Positions 10,439 through 53,850 of a stretch of 64,000 nt of DNA are shown here, piece after piece. The notes under the pieces are model-generated. The model was not told the origin of the DNA and did no database searches. It saw nothing but the letters and a program-made list of their open reading frames with translations. A program made the translations under genes and the position numbers. Every line of letters starts with the position of its first letter. Position 1 is the first letter of the stretch. Source of the stretch: a virus (Duplodnaviria; Caudoviricetes); the IMG/VR virus record IMGVR_UViG_3300025000_000055; one strand, 5' to 3'.

Positions 10439-12910
10439 TTACACTATAATTTTATTAACATAATAATTATTAACATCATTAATATCAATAATTAGTTTCT
10501 TGTTCTTTTTAATATTTAACTTTTCTTTTATAACAGAATCTATTTCTTCTAATTTGGGAAGATTAAAAAAATCATGACCTAAACTATTTAAATCACCTAT
10601 TAACATATTATCTATAAAGATTTTACCTATATCTTCTTTTTTATCTTTATCATCAATATCTTCAATATAATTTGGCAATTCCTTATTATTTTCTATAATT
10701 AATTTACCGATCATGGAATTAGGTTCAATATTAAAACAAATAATAATACTTGGATACATACTGGAAAACGTAATATTCACATAGATCGTTATTCTATGCA
10801 GTTCTCTTATGAACTTCCTTAGCTTTCACTAAGATACTAGACTATATCTTCATCCATTATATAATCGGTATAATGGAGCCTCCTATTTCGATTTAAGGGA
10901 TTTTCACCCACCTACTTAGGCCCTACTCCTAATGACCATTTCAGATCCAAAGGGATAGTCGTTGAACTTTATTCCTATAACTAGGAATCTTAGCTGCGGA
11001 TTACTCAATCTTTTTATTATAAATAAAAAGCTCTAAGAGCTTCCCCGACAATTAAAGAAGTTATTCAACATACATTACTATATGAGGGAACAAATTCATC
11101 CATATCAATAACATTGTCAAATATAAATTGACTTTTTTTACCTAAAATTTCAATACCAACATGAGAATTTAATAATGGGTTGGCAACTAAAGCTCCTGCA
11201 AATTTTTCATCTTCATCATCTTCGTTATTCTTGATTGTTTCTACACCATACTGAATATTAATGTTATTAGCTATTATTAACCCTTGCTTATAAAATTCTA
11301 TATATGCACGATTTTTTAAAAACGTTAAGTTCACATAGATCATTAGTCTATGCAGTTCTCTTATGAACTTCCCTAAGCTTTCCTTAGGATACCAGACTAT
11401 ATCATCATCTCATAGAGATGCTTCCTATTTCGATTTAAGGGATTCTCACCCACCTACTTAGGCCCTACTCCTAATGACCATTTCAGATCCAAAGGGATAG
11501 TCGTTGAACTTTATTCCTATAACTAGGAATCTTAGCTGCGGATTACTCAATCTTTTTATTATAAATAAAAAGCTCTAAGAGCTTCCCCGACAATTAAAGA
11601 AGTTTACAATACATATTACTATGTAAAGGGTCTAATTATTAAACCGTTTGTCTAAATACTTTTTTATAAGTTGTAGCATTAGTATATGAACGTTGATATA
11701 CATTATCAATATCATTAACTTTTCTTTCAATACCTAATTGAAGTAAGACGTCTTTAATATTATACATAACAAATTTTTTATAATTTCTATATGGTAAAGT
11801 TTTAATATTACCATCTTCACTATAATCTAATTTAGTATCACTAATTTCTTTTTCTGCAACATAAGTAAGAGCATTAGAACGTAATTCCGAAGCTCCTTTT
11901 CTTAAAGCACTGTATACTATCATTTGATCTAAAAAAACTGTATAAGATGATATTTTAAAATAATCACCTTTATTTGCTACTTTAAAATTTCTCATATCTT
12001 TTACAAACATTAATTCTTTTATATTAAAATCAGGATGACACATTATTTCTTTTGGATCTAAATTTAACTCTTTCATACGAGCTATTAAATATGGGACATC
12101 AAATCCGATATTCCAAATCATTAAGAAATCACGTTTAAGAGTATTTATTAATTTAAATGTATCTATCAACATTTCACTTTCATCTTCATACATATAAATA
12201 TTATATTTTAATACCCCATATGATTCATCAAATACTTTATGAAGCTCTTCTACAAAATTATCTATATCTTTTTTAAACTTTTCTATTTGAGGATTATTTT
12301 CATTTTCTAAAAGAAAAGTAAAACATGTGTTACTAGTTTCATCAATTAAAGTAATTGCATTAACTGGACATTCACCATCTTTAGGAAATCCAATTACTTC
12401 TATTGAATCAACTTCAATATCAAGATATGTCTTAGTTATAGGTTTAGGTTTATCATTATGATAATTTAATAACCATTGTATTCTATACCAATTTTCAATA
12501 TTATAATCTGAACCAAATACATATCTATATTTATGCAAATTATTAATAGCATACCTATTTCTAGTTTCCAACTTTTGTTTAATATAAGTTAAATATTCTT
12601 CACCTGCTTGTTTAGCTATATAAAAAGGTAAATCTTTATATTTAGTTCGGTGACACTCAGTTTCACTTAAAGGACTAAATGATTTATTATGTTGAAAATT
12701 TCTAAATTCTTCTTTTGTAAAATAAATATCCATCTCAGGTTCATCTATAGTTAATATGTGTTTTTCACCAGTATTTAAATCTTTATAAATAATATCGAGA
12801 CTATCTTTATACTTTCTTTCTTTATTAGGAAAATGGTAAATTGTTTCTAAAAACATTATGTTATCACTTTTCATCTTTCCAAGAAACTTCATTCTATAAA
12901 TCACCACCAA
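10439..12910 (-). CDS. Family B DNA polymerase, N-terminal subunit of a split enzyme, spliced (exons 12910-11642, 11322-11098, 10768-10439)
   Basis: Exonuclease motifs YLDIEVD, WNIGFDVPY and YNIKDV. Splicing restores RQTV|FLKNR and motif A VIDMD|FSSMYPSII. The product (about 607 aa) ends without motifs B and C. Confidence 0.9.
10769..11097 (-). mobile_element. Group I intron C (329 nt, no ORF) in DNA polymerase motif A
   Basis: Family P/Q/R/S core and tail GTGAATATTACG. Excision restores DMDFSSMYPS. Confidence 0.92.
11323..11641 (-). mobile_element. Group I intron D (319 nt, no ORF) in DNA polymerase
   Basis: Family core, P1 GGTT|...GACC, tail GTGAACTTAACG. The join is in frame. Confidence 0.92.
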
Positions 12911-29695: not shown

Positions 29696-32600
29696 TTAAA
29701 TATCTTCTTCTATACCATTCATTTTAATTTTAATATAAAAAAGATTTGTATTTTCATTCTCTTTCCTTTTAACTTGGAATTTATTATTAATTTCTCTTAT
29801 AGTATTAATTCTATCTAAATATTCTTCTTCATTATCATAGTCAATTGAAACAAAACAACTATTAGGTTCATCTTCCTTACAATATTTAAATAAATCTTTC
29901 TCAAATAAACATTTAAAACTTTCTGGTTCTCTTGAATCATCAAAGAATAAACCATGAGTTTTACAAAAAGGAGTTATAATACCACTAGTGCCTGGATCTG
30001 TTATGTTCACATAGGTCGTTAATCTATGCAGTTCTCTTAAGAACTTCCCTAAGATTTCCCTAGGATACCAGACTATATCATTAACCTAAATTTATTAGGT
30101 TACTTCCCACTTCGATTTAAGGGATTCTCACCCACCTACTTAGGCCCTACTCCTATTGCTTATTTCAAAGCCAAAAGGGATAGTCGTTGAACTTTATTGT
30201 TATAATTAATAAGTGTAATCTTTTGATATGTGTACCCATGAAGTTCTTTTTCTTAAATGTTTAACCAAACCCCTATAAGATTCATTTTGTTTTTTGTCTT
30301 TAACTATCATATTCATCTCCTTTCTTATCTCATATTCAGAATAACCTTTTTCTAATAAAATACATATCCCACGAATTAATGTTTCTGAATATTTATTACA
30401 TCCATGTCTTTCACCTTTAACTGGTTTTTGTAACCCTTCTCTCCATGAATGATCAATATTTTCTTTAGGAGTACTCCATTCTAAATTTTTATAAAAATTA
30501 TTAGTTTTATTAGTATCTTTATGATTTATATGAATATATTTTTCATTAAAAAACACTTTTAATGGTAGAAAATAATATCCGACTAATCTATGTATATAAA
30601 ATTTTCTTTGTTTTTTGTATCCTTTTAGCGTACATCTTAAATAACCATCCTTATCAGTAAAAGGACTTAAAAATCTACCAGTTAATTTATTTCTAACCTT
30701 ACCATAATTACTAATTTCGTATATATTTTTAACATTATATTCTATAATATCTTTCCATTCTTCTTCATGGGGTTTAATAAATATTATCATTTAATACACA
30801 CCTCTTAACATATAACAATCTTAGCTGCGGATTACTCAATCCTAAAACCTTGTTACCATACCTTAGTTGATTAGACTAAGCCACTATATTGTTTCCGATA
30901 TAGTTTGGTAGTTTTAGGCTATAAGAGATTTCCCGACAATTAAAGAAGTTTTCATCATAAGTTACCCTATAATGCTCCAATCCAGTAGAGTTACCGCATA
31001 CGTTAATATCGAGCTTCCCAATGTAAGATGGATGAATATCACGATATTTTTTTGATATCCTATTGTCATTCTTACCACCCAAACTATTCGGACCTTTAAT
31101 AGTATATCTTAGTTTACTAAAAAAATCCATATCATTTATTTTATCCGTTGTGTTCACATTACTCGTCAAATAATGCAGTTCTCTTATGAACTTCCCTAAG
31201 TTTCCCTAGGATACCAGACTATATCTTCATCCTTAATTAAGTTAATTACTCTCATTTAAGGAGCTCCCCGTTTTAACTCACCATTATAGACTTGTGAGAT
31301 TACTCTACTTCATATGTTAATTTCTATAACATATTTTTCGATAGTCTTTGAACTTTCACCTTTATATAATTTTTTCCAAGATCTCCCTGATTTGATATTA
31401 CTCATTAAAGTATAAAGATTTCTAATTTCCCTTTTTGATAAATTATTTAAACCTAGTTTATCAATTATCTTTTTATGTTTTAATCCTTGTTTCATAAACT
31501 TAATTATATTTCTTATTAATTCTTCATCATATCTTTTTTGTTTACATTTATTCAAATCAATATTTTCGGTTAAATAAATTCGTGTTCTTTTAGCTCTTAA
31601 ATCATTTATAAATGTACGTATATTTTTTTTATTTTCTAAATTTAATTCATAAATTATAATATCAGTACTTTTATTTTCTTGTAATAAAGATACTATTTGT
31701 TTAGATAATTTATCCGAGAATTTACTTAAAGGATGTTTTTCTCCAATAGGTTTATTTCCTTCCTTATATGAATACGCAATATTTTCTTTCTGAGTACATT
31801 TTTCTAAAAGATCTAATTTATTAAATTTATTTATACTATCTTTATGATGAATTATCATTGATTTATCAGATATATTAAAATCTGACATAAAATAATAAGC
31901 TAATAATCTATGAATTAAAAAATTTCTAAATTTACCATCTATACATGATAATTGAATATATTCGTATTCTTTAGTATTTTTAGAATTTTTTAAAATCCTA
32001 TTAAATTTATCATTTCTAATAAATCCATCAGAATTTATAGAATAATTCTTTTTAACTTGGGGCAAATCTATTTTTACCCAATCTTCTTTTTTCATATCTT
32101 TCTCTTTTCTTTATATAATTTTTATTTTTCTTGGAAAATATATCTTTATAAAGGTTATTAGCTGCGGATTGTCCAATCCTTACTGTTATTACTATACCAG
32201 GTTAATTACTCCTGCCACTATAATATCACTATTATAGATTAGTAAGTAAGGCCCTAAGGAGTTCCCCGACAATTAAAGAAGATTCTTTACAATATTACTA
32301 CTGTAAAGGACAGTATCTATCAAATCTTAATAATCCTGAATCATGTAAATTCTGAATTAGCATATCTCCAGGAAATTTAAATATTTCTTCAATATTTTCT
32401 AAAGTCATTTTTTTACCTAAACTAATAACTCTATTCATTCTTTTACTAAATGCTTTAGTTAATAAAGAAGCAATATATTCATTACATCTTAATCTTTTAT
32501 TATCTATAGACATATTATCTTTCTTTCTTAATTCATCAAAATTTTGAATCATCCATCTGATAACAGAATAAACATTCTTTCGATGTTCATAATCTATCTT

Positions 32601-38828: not shown

Positions 38829-41715
38829 TCATACTTTAATATCAATAACGAACATTTCTTCTTTAATTCTTCGTCTCTCAACTTCTTCATCTAAAAGTTT
38901 TTCGAAATCTTTTGTAGTACCAACAAATACTTTATTTTCCTTATATTCATTAATAATGTCTATTCGTCTTTTAATATCTTTAAATTCTTCATTATTACTT
39001 ATAAAGAATTTTCCATCATAAAATTTACCTTCAAGAAACCCAGTATTAATATCTATATCAAATAATTCATTATTAAATTCAATTTTTAAACCCATAGATT
39101 TCAAAAAGGCTCCTAATATTTCAATATTTCTATTTTTAAAATTTGGTTTATATTTAAAATCTTTTATAGGGTTTAATCTTGTCATTAAATTTTCACCTAA
39201 ATTACGTCTACCTATAACAGATGACCTATAAAATAAATGTAGTTGAGCTATTAGTTCAGTTGGAACACCTATATTAGTATTAAGATTTTCATCAATACCA
39301 ATTCTTATAGGAGTCTTAGAATATAATTCCTGATGAGTTTTAGCCTTATTAGATTTTTCAGGTAAACCTTTTCTAGATAAAGTTCCAGTTGATCTAGCTG
39401 AAAAACCTTTCTTAGCTGTTTGCATTAATTTCATTACATACATATCACCAACTACTAACTTTTTCATCATTTTAATTTTCCTACCAAATCTATTTGTATA
39501 AACATCATATTGTTCAATCCAATCATGTTCTTCATATAATTGAATAAGTTTATCAAATAAAAATTCTTCTTCCCATAAAGGAGGTATATGAATAAATACA
39601 CCTTCTTCAACTAAATTATTAAAAAATTCTTCTTTACTAATAACACTTAATCTCTTTAAATATTGTCTTAATTTTTCTTCTTGGTCTTTATTAAAATAAC
39701 TTATTATATTAAGAAATAAATCTTCCTTTTCTTTTATGTCAGTCATTGTTTGAATACGTTCTACAGTTCTATTACAAATAAAAGTAATTGATTGTTCAAA
39801 AAGCTGGTATGAGTTTACAATTGTTTTAGACCATATCTTCATCTCAAATGAGATGCCTCCCGTTTCGGGTTTCCCCTACTCTACTTACTTCTTCAGTTAT
39901 AAGTAAATTATAACCTATGCTTTCGATGGTCGTTGAGCATATTTCAAATATTAATATTTGAAACTTCGCTGCGGATTATTCAATCTTAAACCTTTTTACC
40001 ATACCTGAGTAATTACTTCAGCCCTTATCTATATGTCACCATGATAAGTTGGTAGATTAAGATTAGCGAACTTTCCCGCAATTAGAGAGGTTTTAAATCG
40101 CCTAAACCTTACCAGTCCAGCGATTGATCACAGATAAACTGTTAAACAGAAGGTCTACACGTTCTCCAGTTTCTAAAAATGGCATCTCATCATCAGGTAA
40201 TATCTTTGATATAACACCTTTGTTACCATATCTCGTTGTATTCACATAGAACGTTAATCTATGCAGTTCTCTCATGAACTTCCCTAGTTTTCACTAAGAT
40301 ACTAGACTATATCATTAACCTAAATAAATTAGGTTACTTCCTATTTCGATTTAAGGGATTCTCACCCACCTACTTAGGCCCTACTCCTATTGTACATTGC
40401 AGTACCTAAGGGATAGTCGTTGAACTTTATTCCTTATATAAGGAATCTTAGCTGCGGATTACTCAATCTTTTAATAATATAAATATTATTAAAAGCTCTA
40501 AGAGCCTCCCCGACAATTAAAGAAGTTTTCTATATATGTCACCACATATAGGGGCTAAGCTATGTAACCCGTTACTTTCTGACCCACTTCTAAATAGGCA
40601 TCTTTTTCAACTAAAAATTCTATTACTATATTGGAAAATACTGAGTTATTTTCTTCTCTCCATTTATATTTTTCGTCTAATATATTTTTTGCTTTTCTCA
40701 TATAAAAACTTATTTCTCTAGAATATTTAGAACCAGAATCAATTATCTGTTTACATCTTTTAAATATTCTTTCATAATAAACTAATTGCATTTTATAATA
40801 TTTCATTATCTGTCTATTAAAATCATTCTCTTCCAATTCATCTAAAGTTTTATTACAATATATATCTATATCAATAATTTTACCTTTACCTTCAATAAAG
40901 AATAATACATCAGAAGTAAAATCAATCTTTCTAAGATTAGATTTCTTTAAATCATATAATAATTGATTATTATGAATTCTCCTCTTAGCACAAATTATTT
41001 TATCCTTAACATATTCGTTTATATCAGGAAATGTCTTATAATTATTACCATTCCCATATATATTACAAAAGATATCATTATCATTTAATGAAACTTTAAC
41101 TCTCTCAACTTCTGTTGAAACCATTCTTCTTGATAATGATTCTGAACATACAATAGCATCTTCAATAGTATTATTCTCTAAAAGATACATAAACTTAACA
41201 TTAGCACCATAACAATAATTCATATCTTCATCATAAGAAGAACTCTTATAAAGAACTTCTCCTTTATATATTGAAGTCCCAACTTCTTTATTATCAATAT
41301 TATCAGTATTATATTTGAAACCATATCTTTCTGTTAAATCTTCAACGTTTTTCTTTTCTATAATATCATATTGGTCATTTTCTTTATCATATATGAATAA
41401 TAAATATATTTGTTCTTCATTTTCACCATCTGTAAACTTACTAATTTTATCAATAATAACACAATCATTTTTAACTTTTTTATAACCAGTTGAATTCTTA
41501 CCAACTATATTTTCATAATTAGTAAAAATTCTTGGAAATTCGGGATTATTTAGAGTAACACATTGCTTCAAGTGAGCTGTAAACATAATATTTCTTGATG
41601 AACTAATATAACCTGGATTTGTTAAAAGAGTCATCCCAAATATATCATCTTTACCTTTAAACTCCTTTTCTTTTTCTTGTAATATTTCTTTCAATGACAT
41701 TGTAGTTTTATACAA
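38829..41715 (-). CDS. rpoB: Multisubunit RNA polymerase beta-like subunit, C-terminal part (probably non-virion RNAP), spliced (exons 41715-40567, 40233-40119, 39817-38829)
   Basis: Splicing restores GQKVTG|[11 protein letters not shown]...MPF...SVINR(T|TA=L)NSYQLFE, equivalent to the RpoB GDKxxGRHGNKG and SRMN motifs. EDAIV and [17 protein letters not shown] are also present. About 750 aa. Confidence 0.9.
39818..40118 (-). mobile_element. Group I intron H (301 nt, divergent, lacks P9)
   Basis: P AATTGCGGGAA, Q AATCCGCAGC, P7 GACCA/TGGTC. 7-bp P1 AATCGCT|...GGCGATT and 6-bp P10 GGTTTA/TAAACT. Confidence 0.88.
40234..40566 (-). mobile_element. Group I intron G (333 nt, no ORF)
   Basis: Family core, P1 GGGT|...GCCC, tail GTGAATACAACG. 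Excision restores TG|RYGNKG. Confidence 0.92.
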
Positions 41716-41806
41716 ATCTGTGTACCCCCTTATTTAGAAATTATTATTGAGAATGTATATTCATATAATATATAAATACACATTCTCTAGTTTTTATTAT
41801 AAAAAA

Positions 41807-43763
41807 TTATATAGCTTTTTGAAATTGTTTTTCTTGTGATTTTTCTAACCTATCACATAATTCAAAAATATTTAATAATTGACCATTTTCTTCTGGTTCA
41901 ACATGCGATAGTTGTTTTTCTAATATAGGTAATGACCTATTAAATAATTCGTATCTTAATTTTTCATTAGTAAGAAATTCTTTTCTAAATTTTCTACTAT
42001 CAAATTTAATATCTTTTACACCTTCAATATATTTATAAGGATTACGACCAGCAATTAATTCATTATCTTCAGCAAATCTTAGTTGAGTTAAAATAGGGTC
42101 AAAACCAGTGGATTGGTCATAAATAAGATTTACAAATTGACCAGCTTTATTTGTTCTAGATTTTAGAAACTCAGCTCTTACACCAAATCCATCAAAACCA
42201 TTTTCTTCTTTCTTAAATTTTTCTGAACCTAAAGCTATAAAATTAACTAATAAATTAGCATAATAGATCGATTTATTCACATTGGTTGTCAGTCAATGCA
42301 GTTCTCTTATGAACTTCCCTAATTTTCATTAGGATACTAGACTATATCTTCATCCTTAATAAATTTTATTAAGGAGTTACCCATTTCGTAAAGAACTCTG
42401 AAAAGTTCACCTCACCATTATTGACTTGTGAGTCTACTCCTACTTTACTTTTATTAAAAGTAACGTCATCAGATAGTCGTTGAACTTTATTCCTTATTAA
42501 TTAATTAAGGAATCTTAGCTGCGGATTACTCAATCTTTTTATTATATAATAAAAAGCTCTAAGAGCTTCCCCGACAATTAAAGTAATGCTAACATAATAT
42601 TACTATTATGCCACCCTAAATTTAGGTGCATTCCCACCCGTTAAGTTCACATAGTTCGTCAAACTATGCAGTTCTCTTATGAACTTCCCTAAGCTTTCCT
42701 TAGGATACCAGACTATATCATTAACCTAATAAGAATTATTAGGTTACTTCCTATTTCGATTTAAGGGAATTTCACCCACCTACTTAGGCCCTACTCCTAT
42801 TGATCATTTCAGATCCAATGGGATAGTCGTTGAACTTTATTCCTTATTAATTAATAATAAGGAATCTTAGCTGCGGATTACTCAATCTCTTAATAATATT
42901 AATGTATTAAAAGCTCTAAGAGCTTCCCCGACAATTAAAGAAGTTATTCAACATACATTACTGTATGAGGCCCCACAAATCTCGAGTTTAGGGATACTCT
43001 GATCCATCTTCATATATAATAATTGTGGTTGCGTTTTATGCATAGGGTTAATTTCAATTTTTTGATTAATATGATTTATAGCAATAACATTTATGTTATA
43101 GGCTTTTATAATTGGCATTAGTCTCTTATAAAATTGGGCCAAAGCTTTAGCAACTCTGTTAGCATAAGTCCCACCTTCCATTTCATTAGAAGCATCTTTT
43201 GAAGCAACAGTTGGAATTGAATCTATAATCATAACTGTTGGAACAAAGGTTTTAATGGGTCTATTAAATTCATCAACTAATCCTGTATCATAAGTATAAT
43301 CTTTTCTATTAACTTCTTTCTCTTGAGCTATTTCAACTATACTATTAAATATATCTTCAATATAATTTTTTTCTTGTTTCAATAAATATTTATCATCAAG
43401 TTCTTGCTGAGTCATAGATGTTACATTTTTTATTCTGGTATAAGATAATACTTGTTCTAAGTCGTAATGTTGAACAAATGCATTATCAACAAATTTTCTA
43501 ACAATATTGGCTGCAATTTGAATAGCAAAAGTAGTTTTAGCAGTACCAGCCTTACCTATAATTGTCATAAACGTACCACCAACTATACCAATAGAAGAAT
43601 AAGTAGTTATAAGTTTCTCATCTAAATCTCTAACTTCCACCATATACCCATTTCTATAATCAAATGGTACAAAACCTGTTGGATAACAAATGGATGTTTG
43701 TGTTGGACTAAATAAACCCTTTTTATCTTTTTCTCTTAATCTTGAGAGCATTTTATTAGCCAT
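41807..43763 (-). CDS. recA: RecA/UvsX-like recombinase, spliced (exons 43763-42990, 42638-42624, 42268-41807)
   Basis: Walker A GKAGTAKT, Walker B MIIDSI and INHI motifs. Splicing gives DQSIP|GGNAP|IYYAN, equivalent to RecA L2 TTPGGNALKFYA. About 416 aa. Confidence 0.9.
42269..42623 (-). mobile_element. Group I intron J (355 nt, no ORF)
   Basis: P1 CACCT|...GGGTG, P/Q/R/S elements, tail GTGAATAAATCG. Confidence 0.9.
42639..42989 (-). mobile_element. Group I intron I (351 nt, no ORF)
   Basis: P1 CCCT|...GGGG, family core, tail GTGAACTTAACG. Confidence 0.92.
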
Positions 43764-43896
43764 TTTTATTTTTCATCTCCTTATAAAATTTTATTGACTT
43801 TCTTTATATGATAGTTGTTCTAAAGATAGAATTCTAAAAAATATAAAAAAAATAAAGAATGGAATTAACCATTCTTTATTTTATTAAAAGTATATT

Positions 43897-44832
43897 TTAA
43901 TATTTCTGTTTTATGATTTGACCATTATTCAACATAATGAAGAATACTTTAAAATGATGTTCTAGCTGAGATAGGGCATTTGAATAAGTCCTCTTAACCC
44001 TATTATTATAATACTCTGAATTAACAAATAATGTTACTGCATTAAATCTTTGTGCCTTTAGTTCTTCAATAACATACTGCAATTCAACATTGTTAAATTC
44101 AACGATGTTGAAAGCATTAGTATTACTATATTTTTGATGCAAACTTTTTAGTATACTAACTTCCGAACGCATTGACAAAATAGTATGAGTTGGTCTATTA
44201 GGTCTATAATTTGATATAATGTATGGTGTATATTTATCACCATTTTTAGATTCTACAATTTTTTTAGAAAATAGAAGTCTATTTATTTTATTAGTAATTT
44301 CTATTTCATCCCCGTTAGATTTATCTACATCCGTACTAATTAAACTATCCTCAATAATAGTGAATGTATAATCAATATCTGATTTAGTATACTTATCGTA
44401 CAATTTAATCTCTAAAGGATTATCTTTTTTATTTATACTTGCAATAATCGTTAATTCACCTTCAAGTGAATAATTCTCTAGTAAACAAATAAATTGTTTA
44501 CTAATATTGACAAGCATTCTTTTACCAATATTTAATGTAATTAGCATGATATCAGTATTATGCTCATTTTTACTTTCAACTATAAATGGGTTAAAGTCTT
44601 TCTTCCCATAAATAATACTTGTTGGTGTACTGGTAAGAATACCAGGTTCTTTCATTTTAATAAATTTTAACAAACCATCATTATCCAATGGCGGAATTAT
44701 ATTCCCCATACATCTAATGAAACAATTCACAACAATTACAGGGGAATCTTTTCTTTTAAAAAAGGCACTAGTCTTACTATTAAGAGTATTAATCTCCCAC
44801 GGTCTTGGACTTTCGTTAAAAATTCCTATCAT
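43897..44832 (-). CDS. Hypothetical protein (paralog 1 of a tandem pair)
   Basis: Shares FNE..PWEI, DxNPFIV and RPxRPT motifs with 44881-45789. Confidence 0.7.
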   Translation of the reverse strand: MIGIFNESPRPWEINTLNSKTSAFFKRKDSPVIVVNCFIRCMGNIIPPLDNDGLLKFIKMKEPGILTSTPTSIIYGKKDFNPFIVESKNEHNTDIMLITLNIGKRMLVNISKQFICLLENYSLEGELTIIASINKKDNPLEIKLYDKYTKSDIDYTFTIIEDSLISTDVDKSNGDEIEITNKINRLLFSKKIVESKNGDKYTPYIISNYRPNRPTHTILSMRSEVSILKSLHQKYSNTNAFNIVEFNNVELQYVIEELKAQRFNAVTLFVNSEYYNNRVKRTYSNALSQLEHHFKVFFIMLNNGQIIKQKY

Positions 44833-44880
44833 AATAAATCTCCCCCTATTTTATTATTTTTATTTTATAAATACAATTTT

Positions 44881-45789
44881 TTAATACTTATATTGTATTA
44901 TAGAACCATTGTTCAATAAAATAAACACCGCTTTAAATTTTGATGTAAGTTCTTGTAATATTACTTTATATTTATCTTCTAATCGTTCAATTGATTCATT
45001 AGAATCAACAAATAGAGTTATAACACTGTATCTATTACTCTTTAATTCCCCAATAAGGTCTTTAAGATTTTCCTCACTAAAATAAGTAAACAAATTATGG
45101 TATTGTAAGTTATTCTTAACAACCTTTTCCATAGTCCGTTCCATTTTTGAATACACATCATTGGAACATATAACTATTTGTGTAGGTCTTTTCGGCCTGT
45201 TATTCTTTATTTTTATAACAACAGGTTCAAATAGTTTATTTAATTTCTGTATAGATTTTTTACATCTTAAATTAAAATTTTGATTATACATAATTTTATA
45301 TTGAGTTATCTCTTTGTCTTTTTCATTATAAAGAGAGATATAACAATAAGAATCTGTATTTGCTTCCATCGAGATTACTATATTTAACTCATTTTTATTA
45401 AGACTATTGTCAATAATAAAATTTCTATCCATCTGAATATCAAATAAGATTTTATCTCTAACATCCAAACTTAATAGTATAACGTTTCTGTTATTTCCAC
45501 TTCTTGATTGTACAATAAATGGATTCAAATCTTTATATCCAAATAAAACATTTGTATCAACATCACATATCTTAACAACATCTATGGTTTTACCAATGTT
45601 ATTAACAGTTGTTTTAATTTTATTTATAAAATCTTCTTCCGGGGATGTTAAATAAATCCCACAATTATAAGTACGAATTTTCTCTTCATCTTCTTTGAAA
45701 AAATCATACTTTTTAGAAATCTGTAAATATTTACTACCCTCCCTTGATATTTCCCAAGGCTTTTCTGTTTCATTAAATAAATAAATCAT
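44881..45789 (-). CDS. Hypothetical protein (paralog 2 of a tandem pair)
   Basis: Same shared motifs, with GGAGG RBS. Confidence 0.7.
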   Translation of the reverse strand: MIYLFNETEKPWEISREGSKYLQISKKYDFFKEDEEKIRTYNCGIYLTSPEEDFINKIKTTVNNIGKTIDVVKICDVDTNVLFGYKDLNPFIVQSRSGNNRNVILLSLDVRDKILFDIQMDRNFIIDNSLNKNELNIVISMEANTDSYCYISLYNEKDKEITQYKIMYNQNFNLRCKKSIQKLNKLFEPVVIKIKNNRPKRPTQIVICSNDVYSKMERTMEKVVKNNLQYHNLFTYFSEENLKDLIGELKSNRYSVITLFVDSNESIERLEDKYKVILQELTSKFKAVFILLNNGSIIQYKY

Positions 45790-45951
45790 AACCCGACCTC
45801 CTATCTCTATATCTCATCTTTTCTATTTAATATTTCTGTTTATTTCCAAATTATTTTTAATTAATCATAATTTTCCATTTCCTATCATTCCTTTAAATAA
45901 ATTAATATAAAGTTGATTTAATAAATCAACTTTATATTATTTTTATTAATT

Positions 45952-46824
45952 TTATAAAAATTTTTTATTTTTCATATCAGAAATAACATCTGATACTTTA
46001 GGATATGTTTCAGCACTTACCTGTGTAAATTGAATCCGACGAGCACTATCTTTACCTCGTTTATCATCTCTTTCACGACGGTCAATAAAATAGGCTAGTC
46101 TTTCTTTAATTTCTTTCTTCTTACCTTCTTCAAGATAAGATAAAACAAAGTTAGTTAAAATATTCCAGATTATCATCTGTTTGTCATCTAAATGACGGAT
46201 GATATCTTTTCTTTCAAGGGCGATTTCCATAATAACTGCATTCAAAAAATCTTCATTAAATAAAGACATAAAAAGTTTCTTTAAAATTTTATTGTCTAGT
46301 TTTAATTCAGATTCTTTACTCAAAGCATAAAGTTTACGAATAAGTCTCTGCACATAAATTCCAATTATCCTCTCATTTTCAATCATAGATTTATCAGGTA
46401 TAATAGCTAGTAATTCCTTAATTGTACTTTCATCTAAATCAACTTTTTTCTTAATTTTCTTGACTTTCTTTTTAAGCAATTCATCAATAATACCACAGTA
46501 TATATCATTAACATCAGTTTCAATCTTATCATGATTTCTTTCTAAAAAGTTATAAAGTAAAACAACCAATGCGGGGTCGTTGTTTTCTTTATTTTCTTTA
46601 ACAACCTTCTTCAGAGTTTTAGCAAATTTTAAATCCATCATTTTTTCAAATATAACAGTTACAATGTCCTGCTCCTTAAAACCTCTGCGAATATAAAAGG
46701 TTGTAAGGTCTGAAAGGTTATCTGAAATCACACGAAGCCTTTCATCTTTATTCATTTTCTTAGGTTTCCATTCTTTTAATAATTCTTTTACTGACATTAA
46801 AAATTCCTCCTTTAAAATATACAA
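45952..46824 (-). CDS. Hypothetical protein
   Basis: About 281-290 aa. GGAGG RBS before MSVKELL. Confidence 0.7.
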   Translation of the reverse strand: MYILKEEFLMSVKELLKEWKPKKMNKDERLRVISDNLSDLTTFYIRRGFKEQDIVTVIFEKMMDLKFAKTLKKVVKENKENNDPALVVLLYNFLERNHDKIETDVNDIYCGIIDELLKKKVKKIKKKVDLDESTIKELLAIIPDKSMIENERIIGIYVQRLIRKLYALSKESELKLDNKILKKLFMSLFNEDFLNAVIMEIALERKDIIRHLDDKQMIIWNILTNFVLSYLEEGKKKEIKERLAYFIDRRERDDKRGKDSARRIQFTQVSAETYPKVSDVISDMKNKKFL

Positions 46825-47001
46825 TAAGTTTCTAATATTAATTTGTTGTTTATTTACAAATTAATTTTTATAATTCTCAACTCCTTAAAATTTAATCTTT
46901 ATACTTTAAAAATAATATATATTTATAAAGTAAATATAATTTTTTATATAATAATAAAAAATAAACATAGATAATACACTATCTATGTTTATTTGCCATC
47001 A

Positions 47002-47721
47002 CTAATTAAAACAATCTAAAGTATAAATTCCATCTTTATCTGGACTATTAAATATTATTGATGTTTCATCAGATATATTTAGAGCTGGACGAACACCAAA
47101 TATCATATTAATAAAACATGATCTATACGTCACCCCTAAATAATTAACATAGGTGGGTGATGGTATAAGAAATGATCTACTTCGTAACCACCACATCCAC
47201 CCATGATTTCTTTCTCTTTTTTTCTTATTAATTTTAATATTATCATTATAACATTCTTTTGATAAAGTTGTTATACGTTTTTCAATATTCCCAACAAAAA
47301 TAGGCAAAATATCAGAACCTTCAATATTATTAACTTCTGCTCCAACTTCCACTAATGATAAAAGAAACACTTTATCTATTAAGTCATCAGTTAATTTGGT
47401 GTCATGTTCATTTTTTATAACCTTAATATTAGTATCTAAAATCTTAGAAAATTCATTAGTAGTAAAGTGACTTAAAAATCCTGAAACTGTATTTAACCAG
47501 TAACGTATATCGGAAGTACCATATGATTTTATTTTATCTTTTGAAAAAGGGTGTAAATCAATAATTTCATCTGTCAATAAAGTAACAGAATTCTCAGGAT
47601 AACCCGGATGGTTCTTAGCAACTATTCTCCAAATAACAGGTGTTATTTCATTGTCACCAACTTTATAACTACCAAATCTAACTTTGTCACTAATATTTAA
47701 TTCTTTAATTAATTTAGACAT
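47002..47721 (-). CDS. DUF6273-like domain protein
   Basis: WRIV, SDIRYWLN, DKVFLLS, WWLRS and GVRPAL motifs. ATG 47721 follows an AGGAG RBS. Confidence 0.7.
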   Translation of the reverse strand: MSKLIKELNISDKVRFGSYKVGDNEITPVIWRIVAKNHPGYPENSVTLLTDEIIDLHPFSKDKIKSYGTSDIRYWLNTVSGFLSHFTTNEFSKILDTNIKVIKNEHDTKLTDDLIDKVFLLSLVEVGAEVNNIEGSDILPIFVGNIEKRITTLSKECYNDNIKINKKKRERNHGWMWWLRSRSFLIPSPTYVNYLGVTYRSCFINMIFGVRPALNISDETSIIFNSPDKDGIYTLDCFN

Positions 47722-48018
47722 ATCACCACTCCTTTTATATTTTTTATTTAAATATAATATATAAATATAATCTTTTATATTTGTTTCTAGATATATAAAT
47801 ATATAATAAGATGTGTTTATTAAACACATCTTATTATATATTATTTACTTAAATTATCTAAATTAGTTTTTACAGATGACTCAATTAATGTCTCTAAATC
47901 ATCCTTTTTTTTAATCTTTTTCTTTGTTGGGTCCTCAATATCTAATTCCCCAAATACACCAACTTCAGTTAGTAAACATAGTTCTTCATTATTTTCTAAC
48001 ATATTTTTCAACCTCCTA

Positions 48019-49728
48019 TTATTTTAAAGATTTTTTAACTAGTAAACCCTTTGTAACTAAGTCACTATTTATACCCATACTCGTCAAATGCACATCAATT
48101 AAATTTAATGTTACTTTATTTTCAACATTATTAGTCAAACTATTTAGAGAAACAAATCCTTTTTGTGCTATAGATGCATACATTTCATTCTTCATAACCA
48201 TATCATCGGCTCTCGGCGATAAGTTCATATTGTTCGTTAGACAATACAGTTCTCTTATGAACTTCCCTAGGGTTTCCCTAGGATACCAGACTATATCACT
48301 AACCTAAAAATATTAGGTTACTTCCTATTTCGATTTAAGGGATTCTCACCCACTCACTTGAGCCCTACTCCTATTGCTTATTTCAAAGCCTAAAGGGATA
48401 GTCGTTGAACTTTATTCTTATTTTTTAATCATAATTTTATATTTTTTCGAAATATGACCCCATTTACCATATTTTATACCATCTATTAAACTATAAAAAC
48501 TATTATTGTTCTTTCTTTTTTTATAACCATATATATGCATTATTTGCATTTGAGTAAGCCCCTTCTCAAGATATTCGCATATTTCAGTAACTAACGCTTC
48601 TGAATATTTAGCATAATAATTTAAACTACCATTACAACCAAATCTACTTTTACCATGAATTAAACTAAAGTCATTATTTTCTTTAGTTGTAACCCATTCA
48701 AGATTTTCGTAATAATTATTAAATGAACATGTATCTTTATGATTCACATTGATTATACATTGTTCTTTATTATAACCATTAATAAATTCCCAAGCAACAA
48801 GTCTATGTATTGCAACATTTTTAATTTCTTTATTTTCACCCATTAATCTTAAATGTAAATATCCTTTTTTATCATGAAAACATTTTAAAAATCTATCAGT
48901 TTTTATATTTTTTATTTTACCATAGTTACTTATTAAATAAGTATTCTTTTTAATAGATGGATATGTAATATTTCGAAAAATTTCTTTATCTTTTTTAATA
49001 ACTATATACATTTTTTATCATCCTTTTAAAATAAATTAAAAAAATGTATAATAAGATATTAAAAAATAATATAACTTATAAATAAGAATCTTAGCTGCGG
49101 ATTACTCAATCTTTTTATTTATATAAATAAAAAGCTCTAAGAGCTTCCCCGACAATTAAAGAAGTTTTCTATATATGTTACCAATATATAGGGGCTAAGC
49201 TATGTAACCCATTAGCTCTCTTAGTGCATCATTGGCTCCAACAGATAATAATGAAAAGTTTTCTTGATCTGATTCTCTAGCGTTTTTATCTTCACCAACG
49301 ACCTGACCAGTCATTGCAGAACGACTTGAACTTTTTGTTGATAAAGTATTTTTTTTACTCAATAATTGTTGCATTCTTTTAATATGAACATAACCAACAG
49401 GTACTTCGTATTTAGTAACAACGGGATTATCAATATTATTATTAACAAAAGGTACTACTATTTTTTCGAATAAAGGTATATCTAATACTTTAGCCGCTTT
49501 TTCTATATTGTCAATATTTAAATCTCTCTCATAATCAACCATATCTAAAATAAGATATTGGTCATCATCTTTAAAAAATTCTTTAAAAAAAATATCGAAT
49601 TGTTTATCACTCATTGGTTGAAATAGTTCTTTATATTTTTTAGTGTTTATACTTGTTGGGTCTAAAGCATCAAACGTATCATAAATTAGTTTTTCCATCT
49701 TTTTTCTTTTATTTTTAATAAGATTCAT
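48019..49728 (-). CDS. C-terminal fragment of an RNAP beta-like subunit (probably virion RNAP), spliced (exons 49728-49207, 48216-48019)
   Basis: VPVGYVHIKRMQQ...RSAMTGQVVGEDKNARESDQE resembles the RpoB C-terminus. Splicing joins LRELMG|PRADD (about 239 aa). Late motif at 49760-49771. Confidence 0.72.
48217..49206 (-). mobile_element. Group I intron K (990 nt) with an HNH ORF
   Basis: P1 GGGT|...GCCC, family core, tail ATGAACTTATCG. Confidence 0.9.
48418..49011 (-). CDS. Intron-encoded NUMOD4-HNH homing endonuclease
   Basis: YLISNYGK, IHRLVA and VNHKDTCSFNNYYENLEWVTTKEN motifs, located in the P6 loop. Confidence 0.88.
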   Translation of the reverse strand: MYIVIKKDKEIFRNITYPSIKKNTYLISNYGKIKNIKTDRFLKCFHDKKGYLHLRLMGENKEIKNVAIHRLVAWEFINGYNKEQCIINVNHKDTCSFNNYYENLEWVTTKENNDFSLIHGKSRFGCNGSLNYYAKYSEALVTEICEYLEKGLTQMQIMHIYGYKKRKNNNSFYSLIDGIKYGKWGHISKKYKIMIKK

Positions 49729-50636: not shown

Positions 50637-51876
50637 TTAATTGTTAGCCAAAAACCAAGAAATATAGTCACCCATACGAGCAAATAATGCATTGGTTGGA
50701 TGTAAGTCATAAGTAACAGACTCAATATCACCTAAATAAATTGATTCGTTTAAGCTATTTATACCAATGTTGTTATACCAGTCACACACAGGACACCCAT
50801 ACAATTCACCAACAGTCTTAATCGCGTTTACATAGTCAACACTTAATTTACCTTCATTATTGTACGTTGCTGTCGTATCAAAATAATAACCCGGAATCGG
50901 TGTTACTAAATAAACCCTCATTGTCGGTTTAGTGGTTAGAATTTTTTCAATGCTGGCCTGTAATGCCCCATAAAATGTATTAGTATTAAACACTGAACCA
51001 ATTGGTTGTATTGTGCCTAAAGCAATTGCTTGTAAATGGTCATTTGCCCCCACTTGTTATTGTTACAGCATTACCATCGTAAATATGAGTATTTATTATT
51101 GCGTAAATTTCTGGCATAGTTTTACCACCAGAGCCTTTATTAAGGATGCTACAACCTAAAATTTCCCTCATATACGTTTGATATCCCTTTACTGATTGTC
51201 CTGATTCTATGTGTGTTGCTGCAAAAACACCACCATCATAAGCAGTAATAGAATCACCAAATGTTACGAAAGTTTTTCCTGCCCATTTACTTTTTGTTGA
51301 TGGGTCAACACTTTCACTACTCACATAACTTCCAGCTATACCTAAATACGGTATAAATTGACTAATGGGTGTTAACTCATGCCCTCCAATAATCAGGGTT
51401 CCTTCTCTGAAATACAGATTATAAAAATCTACCATATCATCAACCATTATATCAAGAAGAACATGTAGATACCTATAGTTATTGGGGTTGCTCCACTCAA
51501 CAGATACCAAAGCGTCTAACTGCTGTTTTACTCCTATATTGTATGTTCCATAGGAGATATACGGAGGGGTTAAGGCTTGACTGGTTCCTAATGTTCCAGC
51601 TACAGCGCTGCTTGTTAAATACAACTCAGCCAAAACAGTATTTATCCTTGGGTCACTACTATACATTTTTGCTTTATGTTGAATTGTTATTGTTCCACTT
51701 AATTCCTCCAAAACAGACGCTAAGTCATAGATAATAGTTACATAAACAGTAGTCCCACTAGATCGTTTTGTGTGTATAAAATCCCATGTAACAGAATTAT
51801 TTTCCAAGGCACTTACAGCGGTCTGAAGTATTTTTATGTTTTTTCTTGCTTTACTATCTACTGGTAGTATCAACAT
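50637..51876 (-). pseudogene. SGNH/GDSL hydrolase tail-associated protein split by a +1 frameshift (ORFs 51040-51876 and 50637-51053)
   Basis: Block I FGDSIT, block II NKGSGG and block V DLHPT. Removing one G from the G5 run (51047-51051) restores block III TSGANDH. Confidence 0.75.
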
Positions 51877-52308
51877 TTATACTGCCCCCTTCCAGTAAAC
51901 ACCTTCTCCATCATTATCGGCATCAATTTTGAGAGAGTTTAGGTTGGAAACTGACCAAACGGTTATATCATCGGCTAAAAGCGGCTTGGCATCTGTTTTT
52001 AATCCGTCCTTGGGATAAATGTAAATGTTCCCAGTGTTAGTTGACATTGCTTCAATTATTACTCCCTCACCACATCCTTGGTCTATTGCGAGTAATTCAG
52101 GTGTACCTGCTACTGTAACAGTTTTTATCCCAGCTATTGCAACTGTTCTACCAGTTAGTTTACTATTAGTTTCTAGTGTTCCATCACTACTATGTTTCTG
52201 AGGTATAATTAACCCAGAAGATAATACTGAATAAGGAATTTGTTTTATAGCCATACTATTAGCAGGATCTGTATAAAACACTTTCTTTGGTAAACCAAAC
52301 ATTAACAT
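51877..52308 (-). CDS. Constant-leader small tail-region protein, copy 1
   Basis: First 53 aa identical to 62482-62883. AAGGAG RBS and late motif at 52335-52346. Confidence 0.75.
   Translation of the reverse strand: MLMFGLPKKVFYTDPANSMAIKQIPYSVLSSGLIIPQKHSSDGTLETNSKLTGRTVAIAGIKTVTVAGTPELLAIDQGCGEGVIIEAMSTNTGNIYIYPKDGLKTDAKPLLADDITVWSVSNLNSLKIDADNDGEGVYWKGAV
52148..52308 (-). repeat. 161-bp repeat identical to 62482-62642, in inverted orientation
   Basis: Base-by-base comparison. A 59-bp core also occurs at 54252-54310. Confidence 0.92.
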
Positions 52309-52419
52309 ATATATCTCCTTTCTTCTTTCATATTTATTTATATGTTTTAATTGGATATTAGCTACAAAGAATGTAAATAAAGATGAATAAAAAATAAAGA
52401 TGGTGGCCCCTAATTAATT

Positions 52420-53850
52420 TTATAATAACAGATTACCCACAATTTTCCCCCTATGCTTAATTCTAGTCAATGCTATTTCTGGCATTTCCCATACACTATC
52501 AAAATCCCAATTTTCATAAGTTGATTGAGAATACATCTCTAATGTAGTTTTAGGAATACCTTTCATTGTATCATCTTGATAAGAGGTCTCCATATTATAA
52601 TAACAGTTTGTTACAATCCCTGTACCTACCCATGCTAAATATTGCCAACCAATAAGACCACCAACATTAATTCCAGAACCATTAACTTTACCTATTGAAT
52701 AGCAATTTTTTAATGCACAATCACCCATACCCATAAATCCGCCAACACTTTCATTAGTTTCACTTGTCACACTACCTAGAGCATAACAATCTTCTATAGG
52801 TGCTTCCCAACCAGTACCAGTAAAACCACCAACATATCTTTTTCCTGTAACATTACCAGTAGAAAAACATTGTTTTATATTAGAAGTATAATCAGTAAAA
52901 GCTATAAATCCTCCAGCATGTTCTGCATTTCCAGTTATATTCCCTCTTGCAAAAGACCTTAAAATAGGGCATTGTAAATAACAAACTAAACCAGCCGCAT
53001 ACCTACCATTGGACATTACAGCTCCAGTTGCATAGCAATCTTCAATACTTCCTTCAGTTCCAGTATGAACTATAAAACCACCAGCGGAAGCATTATCTAC
53101 AGTAGTACCAGTAGAAGTTACGTTACCTGTTGCATAACAATTTTTAATTGGTATAGATGAATAAGAGTTAGCTATAAAACCGCCAGCTTTATATTTAGCA
53201 GTAACATCACAATTAGAAAAACAATTATGAATATTACTATAGTTACCAACAACTAAACCACCAGCATCACCATTAGTTATATTTATACTTCCAATAGAAT
53301 TACAATATTTAATTTCAGCATAATTGTCTGTACAAATACCACCAGAGTTATATTCTGAAACTATATTCACATCCACAGTACAATAACATATCTCCCCATT
53401 TTCCCAGTTTCCTGGGGATATACAAGAATTACCACTTACATAGCAATTTATTATTTTACCTTCATGATATTGTTTAATAATAGCACCATTACCACCAGTA
53501 TCAGCATTTACTACTCTTAAATTTTTTATTATTCCAGTAGAATGAGTACCAGTAAATATTCCTTCACCAGTTAGACCAATAATTGCATAACCATTACCAT
53601 CATAAGTATTATCAATTAAACCATTTGGTGGTCCTACTAAAGCTGTCCATTCACCACTGTTGGTTAAATCTAAATCATTCATTTGAATATAGTTTCCAGC
53701 CATATTATTAGCTACTGCAAGTAAATCATCTAGATTATAAATTCCTATATACCCTTCAGGAACCTCTGTCAATAATATAACTTCTTTATAACCAATAAGA
53801 GAATTATCTATATTAAATAATTTTCTCCATTTTAAAAATGGGTATTTCAT
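52420..53850 (-). CDS. GLUG-repeat beta-helical adhesin / tail-fibre-like protein
   Basis: YIQMNDLDL...YDGNGYAI N-terminus followed by many (A)GG(F/L)xG...CYATGNVT repeats. Confidence 0.75.
   Translation of the reverse strand: MKYPFLKWRKLFNIDNSLIGYKEVILLTEVPEGYIGIYNLDDLLAVANNMAGNYIQMNDLDLTNSGEWTALVGPPNGLIDNTYDGNGYAIIGLTGEGIFTGTHSTGIIKNLRVVNADTGGNGAIIKQYHEGKIINCYVSGNSCISPGNWENGEICYCTVDVNIVSEYNSGGICTDNYAEIKYCNSIGSINITNGDAGGLVVGNYSNIHNCFSNCDVTAKYKAGGFIANSYSSIPIKNCYATGNVTSTGTTVDNASAGGFIVHTGTEGSIEDCYATGAVMSNGRYAAGLVCYLQCPILRSFARGNITGNAEHAGGFIAFTDYTSNIKQCFSTGNVTGKRYVGGFTGTGWEAPIEDCYALGSVTSETNESVGGFMGMGDCALKNCYSIGKVNGSGINVGGLIGWQYLAWVGTGIVTNCYYNMETSYQDDTMKGIPKTTLEMYSQSTYENWDFDSVWEMPEIALTRIKHRGKIVGNLLL

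Follow-up and report, generated by a model that had tools for sequence, protein, structure and literature searches.

How do two group I introns with the same 5' guide come to lie in two different genes of one phage? The question is raised by the 64,000-nt stretch of the virus record IMGVR_UViG_3300025000_000055 (the window), which stems from an uncultured AR9-like jumbo phage. The two introns, called G and K here, and all features described with them are on the minus strand of the window. Intron G interrupts the C-terminal beta gene (beta-C) of the non-virion RNA polymerase (RNAP), and intron K interrupts a small gene coding for a virion-type RNAP beta C-terminal fragment. We consider it probable that the pair arose by ectopic transposition with preservation of the guide, whatever the route. 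For reverse splicing as the specific route, we put the chances somewhat below even.

Intron G (40566..40234) is an ORF-less (ORF, open reading frame) group I intron of 333 nt, detected with the Rfam model RF00028 (76.4 bits, E 1e-17; gathering score 50). Its covariance-model alignment shows an insertion of ~68 nt between P3 and P7, in the place of P7.1/P7.2 of subgroup IA. The 5' splice site follows the U of GGGU, the last base is the G at 40234, and removal of the intron restores VTG/RYGNKGV (the slash marks the insertion point). Intron K (49206..48217), likewise of group I, is 990 nt long and harbours an HNH ORF in the loop of P6a. It ends in the G at 48217, and the joined exons read LRELMG/PRADD, as in uninterrupted homologues. 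Being split by its ORF, it is not detected by Rfam, and an Rfam search at gathering threshold also missed G and most of the sibling introns. For these, we used hidden Markov models (HMMs) built for the family, which match K at 49168..49087 and 48417..48217 (63 and 189 bits); both halves align to G. With the ORF left out, identity between G and K amounts to 89.1% in the 5' 134 nt and to 84.9% in the 3' 199 nt.

An earlier interpretation made from the letters of the window, the sequence-only reading, had reported that the two introns start alike and that both follow GGGT in two different genes (VTG/RYG and LMG/PRA), and both statements are borne out. The 21-mer TACATAGCTTAGCCCCTATAT opens both introns and is present in exactly two copies in the window, at 40566..40546 and 49206..49186, with zero chance copies expected from shuffles even when three mismatches were allowed. 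Directly 5' of them are AACGGGT/ at G and AATGGGT/ at K. Folding predicts for both a P1 with a 6-bp stem (GGGU/UA:UAGCCC) and a 7-nt loop (CAUAGCU), followed directly by the P2 hairpin. P1 of intron G spans 40546..40570, with the exon GGGU at 40570..40567, the intron bases UA, the loop and the guide UAGCCC; that of intron K spans 49186..49210, with the exon GGGU at 49210..49207 and the 21 nt identical to those of G. By sequence, G and K belong to the same multi-copy family of group I introns, which is putatively of type IA, and their splicing is predicted.

Three close lineages carry this family: the window, the complete genome IMGVR_UViG_3300025000_000053 (G001; 249,853 bp), whose beta-C exon 1 is identical to that of 3300025010_000040, and a genome fragment (G002). 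Mutually, they are about 9-10% diverged in beta-C exon 1. By motif and HMM scans, the number of related introns is 11 for the window, about 19-20 for G001 and about 10 for G002. Relative to these siblings, the feature unique to G and K is P1, including the loop CAUAGCU, plus P2. About 37 leaders from the three genomes were compared. Between leaders of different sites, only G and K and one other pair have 25-33 nt in a row exactly in common. The leader of a G001 DNA polymerase intron with the guide GACC shares 24 nt with that of K, in P2 only, and the remaining pairs of different-site leaders share at most 16 nt exactly. When IMG/VR and 241 million metagenome records were scanned with a guide 17-mer, intron copies were found only at the G and K sites of this clade, always after GGGT. 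The metagenome-wide scan returned 66 loci, with an intron core only on already known contigs, the rest being chance matches.

Any intron inserted after GGGU requires a GCCC guide, and a likeness in P1 might thus have been forced by the target, by chance or by convergence. We regard this explanation as practically ruled out by the 21-33 nt of identity, which include the unpaired 7-nt loop and P2, and by the lack of shuffle matches. Moreover, other GGGU-type sites of the family have different loops. The terminase intron of G001 (at 40565) follows GGGGT and has the guide UUAGCCCC as in G and K, but its P1 loop is AAUUUUU. The guide module of G and K, i.e. P1 with the guide GCCC together with P2, has a single origin. 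The 3' half of the terminase intron is also present in the window, at positions 1-241, and a possible fourth GGGU-type site, GGGT/...CAGCCC, was noticed at 65881 in G002.

The beta-C gene (41700..38829) is the orthologue of AR9 g089 and of chain C of PDB 7S00. Its exon 1 (40567..41700) starts with the ATG at 41700, ends with ...VTG and belongs to phrog_3295 (E 2e-68). Exon 2 (40119..40233) comprises the 115 nt between G and a second intron, ends with ...INR and covers positions 230-264 of the Rpb2_6 (RNA_pol_Rpb2_6) profile. The second intron, intron h (39818..40118), is a more divergent group I intron (RF00028, 65.1 bits) with the P1 pairing AUCGCU:GGCGAU; its boundaries were deduced from P1 pairing and the restored frame. 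Exon 3 (38829..39817) matches residues 411-655 of 7S00_C (E 5e-22) and includes the beta-C gene's own equivalent of the K-site region. The G site lies in the GRxGNKG motif (VTG/RYGNKGV), at position 229/230 of the Pfam Rpb2_6 profile and between residues 378/379 of the window protein (379/380 of the alignment reference).

The gene that hosts intron K codes for 239 residues. Its exon 1 (49207..49728) belongs to phrog_3233, 'RNA polymerase beta subunit' (E 3e-34), and its exon 2 (48019..48216) runs from PRADDMVMK... to the stop codon. The gene is homologous to the part of AR9 g078 (a virion RNAP subunit by annotation) that codes for the C-terminal RNAP domain and to phiR1-37 g203, annotated as structural; a PDB search with exon 1 gave no match. 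In an IMG/VR relative (L070), the homologue is the C-terminal 240-residue part of a longer beta ORF (>1235 residues) whose Rpb2_6 domain is at 760-1038.

Since the annotations of both hosts are RNAP beta-like, and since the virion enzyme is a paralogue of the non-virion one, G and K could have occupied homologous positions of paralogous genes, by duplication or homing. This possibility has next to no chance of being right, given that the K host lacks the GRxGNKG part of beta. Profile-profile alignment (hhalign) placed its residues 9-231 on beta-C residues 446-668, a weak match (E 0.08) that is nevertheless collinear with the KLKQTSKKG/KRMQQLLSKK and C-terminal motifs and that leaves the G site outside the aligned span. 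Given this weakness, the non-homology of the two sites rests also on the fused homologue, on the Pfam coordinates and on the motifs. In the fused protein, the G-equivalent motif (VGDK..., then PEGYEPY) is found about 245 residues upstream of GPRADD, and in the virion enzyme of G001, it is encoded by a different gene, at 179-180 kb. From these sequence comparisons, the K site is ~220-245 residues further along beta than the G site, and the positions are not homologous. The flanking DNA and protein differ as well (TG/RYG and MG/PRA), and all the more distant relatives are empty at both sites, which also speaks against duplication or homing.

Occupancy of the two sites was compared across the three close lineages. 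In the window, both sites are occupied, with the HNH ORF in K. In G001, both are occupied as well, with an ORF-less intron at the K site. In G002, the K site is occupied, with the HNH ORF, and the G site is empty, reading AACGGGT/AGATATGG in frame. The K site is thus occupied in all three lineages and the G site in two of them. Among more distant relatives (30-68% protein identity, mostly without GGGT at the G and K sites), the G site is empty and devoid of GGGT in seven IMG/VR relatives and in AR9 g089, and the K site is empty in four IMG/VR relatives and in Goe21. Because both sites are empty in all of these, both introns are gains within the small clade. At the G site, the exons after joining are the same as the empty allele of G002; the insertion is therefore exact, with no donor exon bases. 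A rearrangement suspected in the G002 contig was dismissed by whole-contig comparison, which showed collinearity. A sliding scan for mismatches along the beta-C exons of the three lineages, no two of which form a sister pair, detected no co-conversion tract around the G site, and the G-bearing genomes show no excess similarity near the G site. The K site is at least as old as the G site, and the occupancy favours transfer from K to G.

Within 20 nt on either side of the G and K sites, GGGT is the only shared target feature, and it pairs with GCCC. We looked for P10 pairing at both sites and saw none. The only similarity between the two 3' exons is an offset 8-mer, GATATGGT, which lies on the minus strand at 40225-40232 (+2 after G) and at 48197-48204 (+13 after K). 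The copies are displaced by 11 nt relative to each other, and chance or codon usage (YG / DMV) probably accounts for them.

A second pair of introns with the same guide was found in G001. One is in the virion RNAP beta gene (178405; KNG/AGGFF) and the other in a beta'-like gene (228198; DYDG/D, the catalytic motif of beta'), the insertion points being 178368/178369 and 228161/228162 (loci L052 and L055). Both follow ATGGT, and they share 32 nt of guide and P2 (TAAATGCCCAC...). Their P1 pairing with the exon apparently amounts to 3 bp only.

Several results weigh against guide-preserving transposition, or against parts of it. Firstly, the P3-P9 core is a recombining mosaic common to the ~11 window siblings and the ~20 of G001. 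The 5' module of G is closest to sibling a (92.9%, vs 90.6% to K) and its 3' module to sibling d (87.1%, vs 83.4% to K). A maximum-likelihood tree of the 3' module from 27 copies is a star without resolution in which only the introns of the recombinase 'g' site cluster; G does not group with K, and their sisterhood is therefore unsupported by the core. Given the star-like tree and the siblings closer to G than K is, descent of the whole intron cannot be shown. Secondly, as the three lineages are equidistant, with 9-10% exon divergence, loss of G in G002 would account for the empty allele as well. Thirdly, GGGT occurs 98 times on the sense strand of the 46 kb between 14 and 60 kb of the window, four times in the beta-C exons and three times in the K host. 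In addition, the motifs in which the two occupied sites lie are the most conserved ones of the respective proteins, and different introns are present 9-12 nt away in unrelated phages (L061, AR9 g078). Such clustering in conserved motifs is typical of spread that is driven by endonucleases or filtered by selection. Lastly, no RVT_1 reverse transcriptase was found in the complete G001 genome or in G002, although a host enzyme may have served.

These results limit what the sequence-only reading had proposed. It saw in the pair a direct footprint of ectopic transposition, a view that the specific guide, the non-homologous sites and the empty allele uphold, as long as it is not extended to parent-offspring descent of the whole intron. 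It described near-identical sequences from P2 to P6, a true similarity that is not specific to the pair, since other siblings have the same tracts; it is in the leader (P1 and P2), not in the core, that G and K resemble each other more than they do other siblings. As to the ancestral site, the wider occupancy of the K site points to K, while the trichotomy of the lineages leaves the direction from K to G short of proof. Lastly, it held that the 4-nt guide match had defined the new target. The pairing of GGGU with GCCC is indeed the sole feature shared by the two sites, but with 98 GGGT in 46 kb, a 4-nt match alone cannot have defined the target. The match is necessary, not sufficient, for site choice, and retention at conserved sites or a contribution of an endonuclease must also shape the pattern.

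The mosaic nature of the cores suggests another history, in which a sibling whose guide already fitted GGGU, or had become adapted to it, colonised the G site independently and later had its P1-P2 converted to the K type. The terminase-site intron, with UUAGCCCC, exemplifies such a pre-fitted guide. Only introns that have a target in common would tolerate such an exchange, and the guide shared by G and K would then be the mark of a permitted gene conversion rather than of a parent and its offspring. The copies recombine extensively with one another: P5, P6a, P8 and the last P9 hairpin, all of them variable, are alike across sites within one genome and different between orthologues, and neither the G orthologues nor the K orthologues are mutual nearest neighbours. 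This shuffling is why the core relationships are unresolved. The K-type P2 on the G001 DNA polymerase intron with the guide GACC indicates that 5' modules move separately, and the terminase site (GGGGU) provides a third site with the same guide and a different loop. Nevertheless, that same terminase intron did not undergo conversion to the loop of G and K, and G is missing from one lineage and from all outgroups, which leaves little time for two steps. Conversion would also still need an earlier ectopic insertion at GGGU, so that the question is moved rather than removed. Altogether, we judge this history unlikely.

Intron K encodes, according to its sequence, a homing endonuclease of the I-HmuI-like HNH type. 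The gene (49011..48418) codes for 197 residues and occupies the hairpin loop that Rfam aligns as P6a. The protein has a NUMOD4 domain (27.7 bits, cut-off 23.4) and an HNH_3 domain that scores just below its cut-off (24.5 vs 24.8 bits), and it matches PHROG 959 and 59, 'HNH endonuclease' (E 1e-21). As had been noted from the sequence, there is no such ORF in G. The K-site HNH proteins of the window and G002 are 78% identical, and HNH proteins of different sites are 30-41% identical, compared with 80-90% for the ribozyme cores. This discrepancy implies that the nucleases are old and site-specific and that the cores have been homogenised. The P6a hairpin of G has the form without ORF that several siblings share and is no deletion remnant of the K hairpin, and the ORF-less K intron of G001 has another sibling-type P6a hairpin. 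The ORF thus seems to be absent through replacement of a module, or through descent from a copy that had none, rather than through simple deletion, and the proposal that the nuclease was simply gained or lost after transposition is too simple.

The presence of HNH endonucleases in several siblings, K included, and of a UvsX recombinase in the phage makes it conceivable that the G site was filled at the DNA level, by a break or nick at or near it and illegitimate repair from an intron copy. The break might result from relaxed cleavage by an intron HNH enzyme or from a replication accident, and GGGT may act as microhomology. As only insertions after a guide-matching GGGU would remain spliceable in an essential gene, the match would be a survival filter and not a targeting device. 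The clustering of family and unrelated introns in ultra-conserved motifs, at neighbouring positions, agrees with this route, as does the lack of an RVT_1 gene in G001 and G002. Enzymes of the I-HmuI type bind the 3' exon. At the G and K sites, the 3' exons are unlike and the DNA shares only GGGT within 20 nt on either side, the HNH proteins are site-specific and highly diverged between sites, and both junctions are exact to the nucleotide without donor exon bases, which is unusual for illegitimate repair. We find the DNA route quite unlikely, even though a review names it as an alternative (PMC3984707).

Reverse splicing fits because the insertion is exact, the likeness of the targets is limited to the guide match, the target existed beforehand and the pattern recurs in the second pair. 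From these features, we infer an RNA route, the likeliest of the routes considered, along the following lines. The older home of the intron would be the K site, in the gene for the virion-type beta C-terminal fragment, and the G site, in the non-virion beta-C gene, would have been colonised later, at a GGGU that was already present. The guide would have been kept unchanged, the 4-bp P1 pairing being what made the new site usable. The excised intron RNA would have reverse-spliced into the beta-C mRNA, and the product would have been copied to DNA and recombined into the genome. Later, mutual recombination would have scrambled the cores of all siblings; G has the common ORF-less P6a hairpin.

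This scenario can be set against known systems. According to reviews of group I introns (PMC3984707, PMC2504315), 4-6 nt of P1 pairing are enough for reverse splicing, which leaves no exon co-conversion. The reviews stress that ectopic mobility of these introns by way of RNA has never been shown directly, the best circumstantial cases being those of ribosomal DNA (rDNA; PMC3984707). Related nuclear rDNA introns at heterologous sites were read as spread by reverse splicing (Bhattacharya et al. 2005, PMC1299323, as cited in PMC3984707). As far as that account goes, those introns resemble G and K in being siblings at non-homologous sites, for which the process is deduced from sequence relationship and short guide-target pairing. 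In contrast with them, G and K are hosted by phage protein genes, have identical guides and loops and an empty allele with the target, and have cores too recombined for a tree. The Tetrahymena intron reverse-splices into the 23S rRNA of Escherichia coli at many sites (Roman and Woodson 1995, 1998, as reported in PMC3984707 and PMC2504315). In that account, as for G and K, the target is set by 4-6 nt complementary to the guide and insertion occurs exactly after the paired U. The Tetrahymena case is an experimental integration at the RNA level without DNA fixation, however, whereas G and K are fixed genomic copies for which no RNA intermediate was seen. Lastly, the group II intron B.c.I10 retrotransposes to ectopic sites conserved only in the intron-binding-site (IBS) motifs (PMC2504315). 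Its insertion sites, like ours, share only bases that pair with the intron RNA, but group II introns bring their own reverse transcriptase, which group I introns do not, and none was found in G001 or G002.

The G/K pair is a good further example of a footprint that is predicted but rarely documented, and it is more specific than the background of its family. It represents a tighter natural case than the rDNA introns, with an identical guide at two unrelated sites in essential protein genes. The donor-type site is fixed in the clade, the recipient site is polymorphic with an intact empty target, and a second pair occurs in a sister genome. The locus supplies defined RNAs and targets for a reverse-splicing assay. 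A bolder, rather doubtful possibility is that this groundwater phage clade harbours an intron family that currently retrotransposes by reverse splicing into mRNAs, guided by matches of 3-4 nt alone and without a phage reverse transcriptase. If so, G and K would represent one recent event and the ATGGT pair of G001 another, independent one, and the family would provide, with the empty G allele, the first natural protein-gene system for a direct test of this long-hypothesised pathway. The heavy recombination between intron copies erases whole-intron phylogeny and calls for caution in dating 'bursts' of introns by core similarity.

AR9/PBS1, MarsHill-like and phage K-type phages are comparable systems of the same phage group, with virion and non-virion RNAP, UvsX and polymerase genes as hosts and IA introns with HNH genes, and the 3' module of our family is about 78-80% identical to that of introns of the staphylococcal phage K type. 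A limited literature search found no report of a pair of introns with the same guide in multi-intron jumbo, Staphylococcus or Bacillus phages. Unlike the K host, AR9 g078 has two introns at other positions, one of them with a different type of endonuclease, and AR9 g089 is uninterrupted. The introns of AR9 g078/g079 (KU878088, L077) are at MKSG/QVTG and GPRA/DNS, the second being 9-10 nt downstream of the K site and coding for a VSR/DUF559-type endonuclease; the Goe21 gene is uninterrupted. In another IMG/VR relative (L061, IMGVR_UViG_3300001041_000014), an intron of the family type follows RYGN/ at about 4095, 12 nt downstream of that genome's own empty G site.

The 11 introns of the window are distributed over the genes for the terminase (one), a structural protein (one), two polymerases (two each), UvsX (two) and beta-C (two, G and h) and the K host (one). 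Across the siblings, P1 covaries with the exon, as GGGU:GCCC, CCCU:GGGG, GGUU:GACC, CACCU:GGGUG and AUCGCU:GGCGAU. The UvsX/RecA-like recombinase gene (43763..41807) contains introns a (42989..42639) and g (42623..42269), separated by a mini-exon of 15 nt (GGNAP, 42624-42638, minus strand), which splits the conserved GGNA motif. In the DNA polymerase gene, G001 (at 52721..51651) has one HNH intron with the K-type P2, the guide GACC and the target GGTT, i.e. a one-base change of the guide from GCCC to GACC that is paired with a one-base change of the target. The same polymerase region of the window (11641..10770) harbours two ORF-less introns, b and c. In the second polymerase gene (30986..30000 of the window compared with 73383 and 74486 of G001), intron d of the window is 6 nt away from a G001 intron, and G001 has one further intron where the window has none, indicating a high turnover of sites. 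Lastly, intron h of G002 contains an extra insert of ~1.1 kb (9298..8190) with an ORF of 341 residues, an insert that neither the window nor G001 has.

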